64,000 nucleotides of DNA from Escherichia phage WPEC3: sequence record PV611058. The stretch is one strand, 5' to 3'. Position 1 is the first letter of the stretch. Each line of letters starts with the position of its first letter. Below, piece after piece: positions 63,295-63,849 of this stretch. The notes under the pieces were generated by a model. The model searched no databases. It was not told the DNA's origin and saw only the letters and a list, made by a program, of their open reading frames with translations. A program made the position numbers and the translations under genes.

Positions 63295-63532
63295 ATACTA
63301 AATTGGAAAAGTGTTCAGTACTGGAATATTTTGCTAAATCTGTTATATGGAAGTAGACATCTTTGAAATTATCATTCTCAAATGTCGTTATTTGTAAACA
63401 GTGTGTGGGTCTGAAAATATAATAATAAAATATATCATCTTCAGCCACAACTGTATGGTTTTTGTAGCGTTCAATTTTTTTCATGTGTGAATAATTTCTT
63501 TTACCCCATATTCCATAATTGCCAACGTACAA
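63263..63532 (-). CDS. hypothetical protein
   Basis: 89 aa ORF overlapping the deaminase-like gene by ~50 nt; coding status uncertain. Confidence 0.3.
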   Translation of the reverse strand: MYVGNYGIWGKRNYSHMKKIERYKNHTVVAEDDIFYYYIFRPTHCLQITTFENDNFKDVYFHITDLAKYSSTEHFSNLVFVYCIPNHNM

Positions 63533-63849
63533 ATCTCACAAGGCTTGGCAGGGACTGGAATACCATCTTTACTTACCCGTGCAATCAACAAAGTATGAAC
63601 TTCAGCACGAGAAGCCAGCAAACATGAGATTTCAGCATGAAGAAATTCACCTTGTGGACGACCAGCACGGATTGCAAAACCTTTCTGTACTGGGTGAGTA
63701 TGTGTGTAAGAATTAGTACGTGTTGCCAATACACGACCTTTCTTATCTAGTGCACGAGCAATCACACGATAACGTTTGTAGCTCCCCACTTGCTCGATTG
63801 GTGGCATCCGTCGCAATTCTTCAATTAGTTTCTCAAGTTTACGATTCAT
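63481..63849 (-). CDS. compact zinc-dependent deaminase (cytidine/dCMP deaminase-like fold)
   Basis: HAE...PCxxC zinc-binding signature (FLHAEISCLL ... KPCEICTLAI) with typical ~30 aa spacing; only 122 aa. Confidence 0.55.
   Translation of the reverse strand: MNRKLEKLIEELRRMPPIEQVGSYKRYRVIARALDKKGRVLATRTNSYTHTHPVQKGFAIRAGRPQGEFLHAEISCLLASRAEVHTLLIARVSKDGIPVPAKPCEICTLAIMEYGVKEIIHT

Follow-up and report, generated by a model that had tools for sequence, protein, structure and literature searches.

The question raised by a stretch of sequence record PV611058 (Escherichia phage WPEC3) is what a phage would do with a zinc deaminase of only 122 residues. The stretch of DNA that was analysed, called the window below, is 64,000 nucleotides long, and the gene in question (63481..63849, minus strand, ATG start) encodes a protein of 13.8 kDa with an isoelectric point (pI) of 9.84. 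A sequence-only reading had described its HAE and PCEIC motifs and proposed either a minimal deaminase of deoxycytidine monophosphate (dCMP) or cytidine, feeding dTTP synthesis, or a nucleic-acid deaminase. The pertinent question is which amino group is removed: that of a free nucleotide, of a nucleoside, of a base within RNA or DNA, or of some other heterocycle. Our preferred answer, to which we give a probability of roughly 0.45, is an unregulated auxiliary deaminase of deoxycytidine nucleotides that would feed the phage thymidylate synthase, ThyA. The chemistry in this proposal is taken from the superfamily, the fold from a predicted model, and the substrate from homology, genomic position and composition.

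The 122-residue open reading frame (ORF) stands as first described, with the codons of both motifs read directly; it lies on the minus strand, which the earlier reading had left unstated. H71-A72-E73 (63631..63639, minus strand; CAT GCT GAA) holds the histidine zinc ligand and the catalytic glutamate, and P103-C104-E-I-C107 (63529..63543, minus strand; CCT TGT GAG ATT TGT) the two cysteine ligands. The hidden Markov model search that had been suggested as a check on deaminase families gave a marginal pass with Pfam PF00383 (E=7.7e-6; 26.2 bits against a cut-off of 25). The same model matched 60 of 60 diverse family members at E<=0.01, the best at 3e-16, and PHROG 174, named 'dCMP deaminase', matched the window protein at E=1e-11. 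The sequence-only reading had staked its case on conserved zinc ligands, and in an alignment of 160 diverse homologues the ligands, the catalytic Glu and the adjoining A72 and P103 vary little or not at all: H71 is kept in 159, A72 in 155, E73 in 160, P103 in 159, and C104 and C107 each in 160. Purifying selection is strong, as seen against phage 121Q, with which the gene shares 85% nucleotide but 94% protein identity. On these sequence grounds we regard the gene product as confirmed to belong to the zinc deaminases of the cytidine deaminase (CDA) superfamily, with its catalytic residues intact.

An AlphaFold2 model built on 18 homologues (pLDDT 91.6) consists of a helix (residues 3-14), two strands (28-34 and 40-45), an inserted helix (53-61), the HAE helix (72-80), a strand (86-92), the PCxxC helix (105-114) and a final strand (118-121), after which the chain ends. 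The CDA fold is a three-layer alpha/beta/alpha arrangement around a five-stranded sheet of order 2-1-3-4-5. The model has four strands and is without the beta5 and helix 4 of TadA and of dCMP-deaminase-type enzymes. Comparison of folds gave figures of 9.8 for guanine deaminase 1TIY, 9.4 for Tad3, 9.3 for TadA, 9.0 for both the T4 dCMP deaminase (Cd) 1VQ2 and blasticidin-S deaminase, 8.8 for PBCV-1 bi-DCD and 4.7-6.8 for DNA-deaminase toxins.

The protein is one of a large family, referred to here as mini deaminases. A search with the family profile over 1.84 billion cluster representatives (50% identity) returned 4,441 proteins at E<=1e-3, of which 1,041 reached E<=1e-10; nearly all have lengths of 96-166 residues. 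A short form, to which the window protein belongs, has 15-17 residues after PCxxC and typically ends in '...HT' or '...YT'. A long form carries 10-15 extra residues ('TTDDGYxxE') that would form a beta4-beta5 hairpin, and some members, such as that of Xanthomonas phage DES1 (100 residues), are also without the N-terminal helix. Homologues in cultured phages (195 records) come from Rak2-like jumbo phages, phiKZ-like Pseudomonas phages, Aeromonas phages, cyanomyoviruses, Cobetia phage Carin-5 and phage DES1; in the RaK2 annotation its own copy is 'similar to phiKZ ORF260'. Two peptide patterns alone found 557 contigs in IMG/VR. In 185,579 species-representative bacterial and archaeal genomes the first pattern found zero loci and the second 14, all on short contigs (0.7-14.7 kb) of metagenome-assembled genomes. 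Within the limits of such a pattern-based scan, the family looks phage-restricted. The literature held no paper characterising phiKZ gp260, RaK2 ORF518 or 121Q gp490 and no biochemical study of the mini family, whose members fill thousands of database entries under the names 'dCMP deaminase', 'TadA' or 'hypothetical', given on the strength of similarity only. A diverged branch is seen in the phiKZ-like homologue of Pseudomonas phage SL2 (locus L009, 5998-6357), where HSE replaces HAE (...CEMHSELRS...) and the chain ends in '...VIVSIGK'.

Two regions set the family apart. The first, N46-S-Y-T-H-T-H52-P53-V-Q55 (63685..63714, minus strand), leads into the inserted helix 53-61 and corresponds to the family signature NSYxKTHPxQ, whose residues are kept in the following numbers of the 160 aligned members: N 157, Y 115, K 132 (His in the window protein), T 118, H 146, P 145 and Q 139. 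The second is R91 with the loop 92-102 (VSKDGIPVPAK; 63544..63579, minus strand), a family-specific 10-residue insertion between beta3 and PCxxC, in which R91 is kept in 157 members, G96 in 135, A101 in 128 and K102 in 95. A59 and G63 likewise belong to the signature.

Homology points first to dCMP deaminases. When the family profile was run against solved structures, these came top (4P9C from cyanophage S-TIM5, 3e-6; 2HVV from S. mutans, 7e-6; 1VQ2, the T4 Cd, 9e-6; family identifiers IPR016473 and TIGR02571), with TadA-like proteins at about 3e-3. A search of PDB sequences with the single protein gave nothing significant, and the family profile alone reached the dCMP deaminases. Alignment of the mini family with the canonical phage Cd family by hhalign gave a probability of 98.2% and E=3.6e-14 over 105 columns. 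Shared with the T4/ComEB-type enzymes are a predicted CDA fold, the HAE...PCxxC motifs, an Asn after beta2 and an Asn-to-HAE spacer of similar length. The T4 Cd residues that contact the deoxycytidine moiety are V24, N40, A105, E106 and P131 (PMC12697855). They align with V29, N46, A72, E73 and P103 of the mini protein; these residues are also common to TadA-like enzymes and hence do not discriminate.

Genomic position points the same way in a few phages. In T4-like marine myoviruses the slot after gp45-gp44-gp62-regA-hsp20 is occupied by canonical Cd in 31 of 80 Cd loci and by a mini gene in one locus (L116), which is a single case of in-situ replacement of Cd by a mini deaminase. In the complete genome of phage DES1 the mini protein is the only CDA-type deaminase, beside ThyX and ribonucleotide reductase. 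In Carin-5, whose DNA is T-hypermodified, it is the only 'dCMP deaminase' in the authors' list (PMC12686479).

The mini protein nevertheless differs from the canonical enzymes at several points. All 11 canonical phage Cd proteins that were aligned have G38-Y39-N40-G41; the corresponding residues of the mini protein are T45-N46-S47-Y48, in a family with the consensus G-x-N-S-Y. We take the G-[YW]-N-G motif after beta2 to be the site of allosteric control by dCTP and dTTP in dCMP deaminases. The mini chain ends at T122, one residue past the equivalent of Cd Y127, and helix 4, beta5 and the invariant Y131 (alignment A6) are absent. Also absent is the second zinc site of T4 Cd (C19, C49, H94, E102), which is not universal among T4/ComEB-type enzymes; the only cysteines of the mini protein are C76, C104 and C107, and the aligned positions hold no ligands. 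In the hhalign alignment R91-K102 appears as a 10-residue insertion before PCxxC relative to canonical Cd.

Profile tests likewise set the protein apart from the T4/ComEB-type dCMP deaminases, TadA, tetrameric CDA and the toxin deaminases. No NCBIfam model came near its threshold for the window protein. The ComEB model TIGR02571 (219 bits) and the TadA model NF008113 (150 bits) did not match it at all, and the tetrameric CDA model TIGR01354 gave 12.8 bits against a threshold of 113.65. Among 60 family members the weak NCBIfam matches favour deaminases of cytosine nucleotides or cytidine, which speaks for a deoxycytidine-nucleotide substrate: they were to anti-phage dCTP deaminase in 24, tetrameric CDA in 12, TadA in 9 (best 1.9e-5) and ComEB in 7 (best 1.1e-6). 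The commonest of these, NF041025 for anti-phage dCTP deaminase, reached 7.7e-9 at best and stayed far below its 400-bit cut-off. That enzyme and other CDA-fold dCTP/dCDP deaminases are larger or multi-domain, and the mini protein has no kinase-like domain. CDA-fold enzymes such as PBS1 Dcd, PBCV-1 bi-DCD and CDADC1 can accept di- and triphosphates (PMC12697855). Several family members are called TadA by JGI pipelines, and the MafB19-like Pfam model PF14437 matches 35 of the 60. Polymorphic-toxin deaminases (MafB19, DddA, SsdA) were considered and rejected on the Pfam threshold, the N-terminal delivery region and the adjacent immunity gene.

The genome around the gene both supports and complicates a role in dTTP supply. 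Over positions 62000-64000 the window shares 99.8% identity with Escherichia phages Ecwhy_1 and fEgEco12, and 82-95% with other Asteriusvirus jumbo phages, e.g. 121Q and PBECO4; the GenBank names for the gene are 'dCMP deaminase', 'CMP/dCMP-type deaminase domain-containing protein' and 'hypothetical protein'. The sequence-only reading had noted thyA and tdk in the window, and Pfam matches bear this out. The thyA gene (15105..16034, minus strand; PF00303, E=3.4e-101) would be the consumer of dUMP, and tdk, for thymidine kinase (42570..43154, minus strand; PF00265, E=7.8e-48), could provide a salvage route for deoxyuridine were the enzyme to act on nucleosides. The window also encodes a dNMP kinase, nrdD and nrdG, and no tRNA genes were found in it. 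About 10.3 kb past the window end, at 226292-226765 in Ecwhy_1, lies a T4-type Cd of 157 residues, located by tblastn with the RaK2 Cd (79% identity). This protein, whose pI is 6.7, resembles T4 Cd (structure 1VQ2; phmmer E=1.4e-33) and scores 68.7 bits with TIGR02571, below the bacterial equivalog cut-off of 219. BLASTP found no similarity between it and the mini protein (E=13). The same tblastn query detected a Cd gene in essentially all relatives, and RaK2 itself has cd (gp495, 156 residues) about 15 kb from its own mini gene, ORF518 (PMC3622015). Of the earlier proposal, then, the compact zinc deaminase stands, and the implicit assumption that it serves as the dCMP deaminase of the phage is not borne out: the Cd gene was invisible to that reading because it lies outside the window. 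With a separate Cd in a near-identical phage, the mini enzyme is not simply 'the' dCMP deaminase.

In the mechanism that we favour, zinc held by H71, C104 and C107 would activate a water molecule, E73 would shuttle protons, and the amino group at C4 of the cytosine ring would be exchanged for oxygen. The substrate would be dCMP, or the di- or triphosphate, and the resulting deoxyuridine nucleotide would pass through the phage ThyA to dTTP. Basic residues on the two pocket-side insertions (K/H50, H52, R91 and K102) may bind the phosphate or phosphates, standing in for the C-terminal Tyr segment of the canonical enzymes. The enzyme would be constitutive rather than controlled by dCTP and dTTP, because GYNG and the whole C-terminal segment are absent, and it would work alongside the regulated T4-type Cd. 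Such an activity would push the nucleotide pool towards T in a phage of 36.7% GC growing on a host of about 51% GC. Loci with mini genes are all AT-rich (30-52% GC, the window 36.7%), and the hosts, where known, are 14-31 points higher in GC than their mini-carrying phages. A pressure from GC to AT would be expected equally from pool bias and from DNA editing.

Several observations weigh against this proposal. The alignments show neither GYNG nor the second zinc site in the mini protein, and its chain stops short of the conserved Tyr that follows beta4. The in-situ replacement of Cd is based on one locus only. The mini enzyme stands beside a bona fide T4-type Cd in a near-identical phage and in RaK2, and Carin-5 has it together with a dUTPase-fold dCTP deaminase (PMC12686479); with such enzymes in the same genomes, a plain redundancy of function has no explanation. 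Lastly, the family is uniformly very basic, which is unusual for a small-molecule enzyme and is the pattern expected of a polyanion binder. The median pI of 110 mini ORFs is 9.73, with 89% above pI 9, against 6.37 and 3.8% for 80 canonical phage Cd proteins (Mann-Whitney p=8e-30), and 6.79 and 32% for 959 ORFs of 90-150 residues in the same loci. Among the 160 homologues Lys or Arg is kept at about 13 alignment positions spread across the domain.

These last points lead to the most serious competitor, which we nevertheless think unlikely: a basic, minimal CDA-fold enzyme that edits C to U (or A to I) in RNA, notably tRNA, or in single-stranded DNA. It might act on the tRNAs of the phage or of its host, or on nucleic acid of the host. 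The pI of about 9.7 with its many conserved Lys/Arg positions would be natural for such an enzyme, as would the confinement of the family to phages and its occurrence in genomes that also encode a canonical Cd or a dCTP deaminase. With TadA and ADAT2 it shares HAE...PCxxC, the Asn after beta2 and a gene that often adjoins tRNA genes. On the other hand, profile E-values are better for dCMP deaminases than for TadA by some three orders of magnitude. The C-terminal helices of TadA, which bind the anticodon stem-loop (TadA-RNA structure 2B3J), are absent from the mini protein, whose chain ends after beta4. TadA is essential in cells, whereas the mini family is absent from cellular genomes, where the pattern scan met only the 14 short contigs described above.

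The location of tRNA genes bears most directly on an RNA substrate. They were counted within +-6 kb in IMG/VR loci of the mini gene (L019-L143), of ThyA (L144-L228, from an alignment-based scan) and of canonical Cd (L229-L308). At least one tRNA was present in 32 of 110 mini loci (29%; median nearest distance 678 nt), in 2 of 85 ThyA loci (2.4%) and in 22 of 80 canonical Cd loci (27.5%; median 615 nt). For both deaminases the nearest tRNAs are of the same kinds (most often Met-CAT, Arg-TCT or Ile-TAT) and always on the strand of the gene. In several contigs (L005, L097, L109, L139 and L143) the mini gene lies inside a same-strand tRNA array. After lineages had been de-duplicated by shared flanking genes, a tRNA at <=2 kb was found in 13 of 31 mini against 3 of 25 Cd lineages (p=0.018), and any tRNA in the flank in 15 of 31 against 9 of 25, which is not significant. 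Adjacency was tried as a decisive criterion and rejected: strong against ThyA, it largely dissolved with the canonical Cd control, as the proximity is for the most part common to bona fide Cd genes. The excess being mostly lost in this way, tRNA adjacency is therefore at most weak support for an RNA substrate. It is real but only partly specific, and mainly shows that the two kinds of deaminase share a genomic niche. A34 tRNA genes, moreover, are rare near the mini gene (3 of 32 tRNA-containing loci), and no tRNA was found near the gene in the Rak2-like, phiKZ-like, Carin-5 and cyanophage loci. The host tRNA-Arg(ACG) is always available as an A34 tRNA.

Some observations on these arrays stand apart from the deaminase question. 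On a 205-kb viral contig (IMGVR_UViG_3300012933_000323) a 10-tRNA array contains at L034 3713-3788 a tRNA with CTA anticodon, labelled tRNA-Pyl by ARAGORN, which may be an amber-suppressor tRNA. Genes for tRNA-Ile(TAT) occur in several other arrays (L097, L111 and L112).

A more specific version, in which the mini protein is a natural tRNA, RNA or single-stranded DNA deaminase, the smallest known, that edits tRNAs or host nucleic acid together with the upstream protein in Rak2-like phages, is in our view a little harder still to credit. A polynucleotide substrate would make these proteins of 100-122 residues a new class of phage RNA or DNA editors, and attractive for compact editors; TadA orthologues have 143-217 residues and the base editors derived from them about 151-172 (PMC13403082). 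If instead deoxycytidine nucleotides are the substrate, as we prefer, many AT-rich phages own a feedback-insensitive route from dC to dU nucleotides, sometimes beside a regulated Cd, which would bear on how phages set their deoxynucleoside triphosphate pools and base composition. Among the carriers are jumbo phages, T4-like marine and phiKZ-like phages, and one phage with T-hypermodified DNA.

Could the enzyme act at the nucleoside level instead? A (deoxy)cytidine deaminase would turn salvaged deoxycytidine or cytidine into deoxyuridine or uridine, and thymidine kinase would then yield dUMP for ThyA; tdk and thyA in the window are in keeping with this. The mini protein also resembles tetrameric CDA and blasticidin-S deaminase in its size and in the loop between beta3 and PCxxC, and the long-form members would resemble them in ending with a beta4-beta5 hairpin. 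In the tetrameric enzymes (B. subtilis and E. coli CDA) the ribose is bound by the motif N-x-E and the first ligand lies in CAE. The mini protein has N-S-Y and HAE in their place, its short form is without beta5, and its score with the tetrameric CDA model is the very low one given above. In addition, its strongly basic surface suggests a phosphorylated or polyanionic ligand, and the host already has Cdd. We consider the nucleoside role improbable.

Other heterocycles come out lower again, and we would be surprised to find one of them as the substrate. Guanine or a guanine nucleotide, adenine nucleotides, 5-methyl- or 5-hydroxymethyl-dCMP, or the immune signal cCMP might be deaminated, which would imply specialised metabolism or counter-defence. 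A phage-only family found among small early or accessory genes, in genomes where standard suppliers of dUMP co-exist, would suit such a role. Guanine deaminase (1TIY) needs a domain-swapped C-terminal segment that is absent in the mini protein. Nor do the neighbours help: across 44 loci no gene was linked to the mini deaminase in different lineages, and thus no partner points to a defence or modification pathway. Evidence of an anti-defence or PADLOC type did not emerge either, PADLOC itself not having been searched. Finally, a non-catalytic remnant, or a structural or regulatory protein, as the truncated four-stranded fold without beta5 or helix 4 might suggest, deserves hardly any credence, the catalytic residues being invariant across thousands of diverged members under strong purifying selection.

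The arrangement of the gene suggests how it is expressed. The sequence-only reading had its start overlapping the stop of an upstream gene as ATGA, and this proved correct (63846..63849, minus strand; ATG 63849-63847, upstream TGA 63848-63846). The true upstream gene, as seen in the Ecwhy_1 locus (L001), is a 204-residue gene that runs off the window end and not the 42-residue ORF of the ORF list. Its C-terminal 51 codons occupy 63846..64000 (minus strand), and the whole gene, 'c3' (phrog_16370), lies at L001 7390-8004. In the Rak2-like supergroup (11 loci, deaminase identity 54-100%) a gene of 204-222 residues is always directly upstream, overlapping by 4 nt, as ATGA, in 10 of the 11 loci and by 14 nt in one, and the downstream genes vary. 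No Shine-Dalgarno-like sequence was found 5-10 nt before the deaminase ATG (AAGGG lies 15-19 nt upstream), and promoter- or terminator-like sites in 62200-64000 are at chance level. Together with the ATGA overlap, this makes it plausible that the deaminase is translated by coupling to the conserved upstream gene in Rak2-like phages, which is how we would expect the proposed nucleotide deaminase to be expressed. The N-terminal part of the c3 protein is a conserved alpha/beta domain in which H31, C34 and H72 are invariant and C78 nearly so; these residues may form a metal site. The C-terminal part is a variable coiled coil. From the constant position of its gene, directly upstream and overlapping, c3 is a candidate partner or regulator of the mini deaminase.

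A second ATGA, absent from the earlier reading, joins the deaminase stop to the start of a downstream ORF of 73 residues (63481..63484, minus strand; stop 63483-63481, ATG 63484-63482). This ORF (63263..63484, minus strand), whose translation would likewise be coupled, is annotated in Ecwhy_1 as CDS 8366-8587 in L001. It has no Pfam or PHROG match and no similarity to RaK2 ORF519, which lies at the same position, and it is not conserved outside Asteriusvirus. We considered whether it might supply the missing beta5 or act as an immunity protein; it is unconserved even in RaK2, and both roles were therefore rejected. Pfam and PHROG searches with the upstream 204-residue protein, 'HrgC' and other neighbours gave no informative match either. 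'HrgC' (62893-63252, minus strand) is the name in Ecwhy_1 and 121Q of a small predicted membrane protein two genes downstream, whose sole match is phrog_4915 (function unknown).

Several other neighbours may be recorded. At 0.1-7 kb from mini homologues there recurs a set of genes for a GGACT/AIG2-like gamma-glutamyl cyclotransferase, an ATP-grasp protein (RimK/TTL-like), an Amidoligase_2 protein and a class-II glutamine amidotransferase (L011, phage DES1, 8032-14315; L014 7405-13903; L016 12869-14306; L017 5291-5752; L004 7382-8746). This recurrence is probably synteny within one phage lineage. Between nrdD and nrdG in the window lies the gene of a DUF4326 protein (59674-60000, minus strand; Pfam E=2.9e-24), with 23 nt in common with the start of nrdG. 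In one PHROG match its relatives are called 'ribonucleotide reductase NrdA-like', and the RaK2 equivalent is annotated as nrdA.1. A few kb upstream of the deaminase, in Ecwhy_1 (L001 5605-6576 and 4-753), there are a 323-residue protein that ends in a WGR domain (Pfam E=1.3e-10) and Sir2-like and PhoH-like proteins. In RaK2 a Sir2-like protein adjoins the Nudix hydrolase NudE, and a link to NAD or ADP-ribose metabolism is conceivable. Elsewhere in the window, between the neck/tail genes and lysozyme, there is a cluster with the annotations macro-domain (Appr-1-p processing) protein, glutaredoxin, Nudix hydrolase and phosphatase; correspondence with L051 of Ecwhy_1 puts it at about 34.4-37.7 kb on the minus strand.

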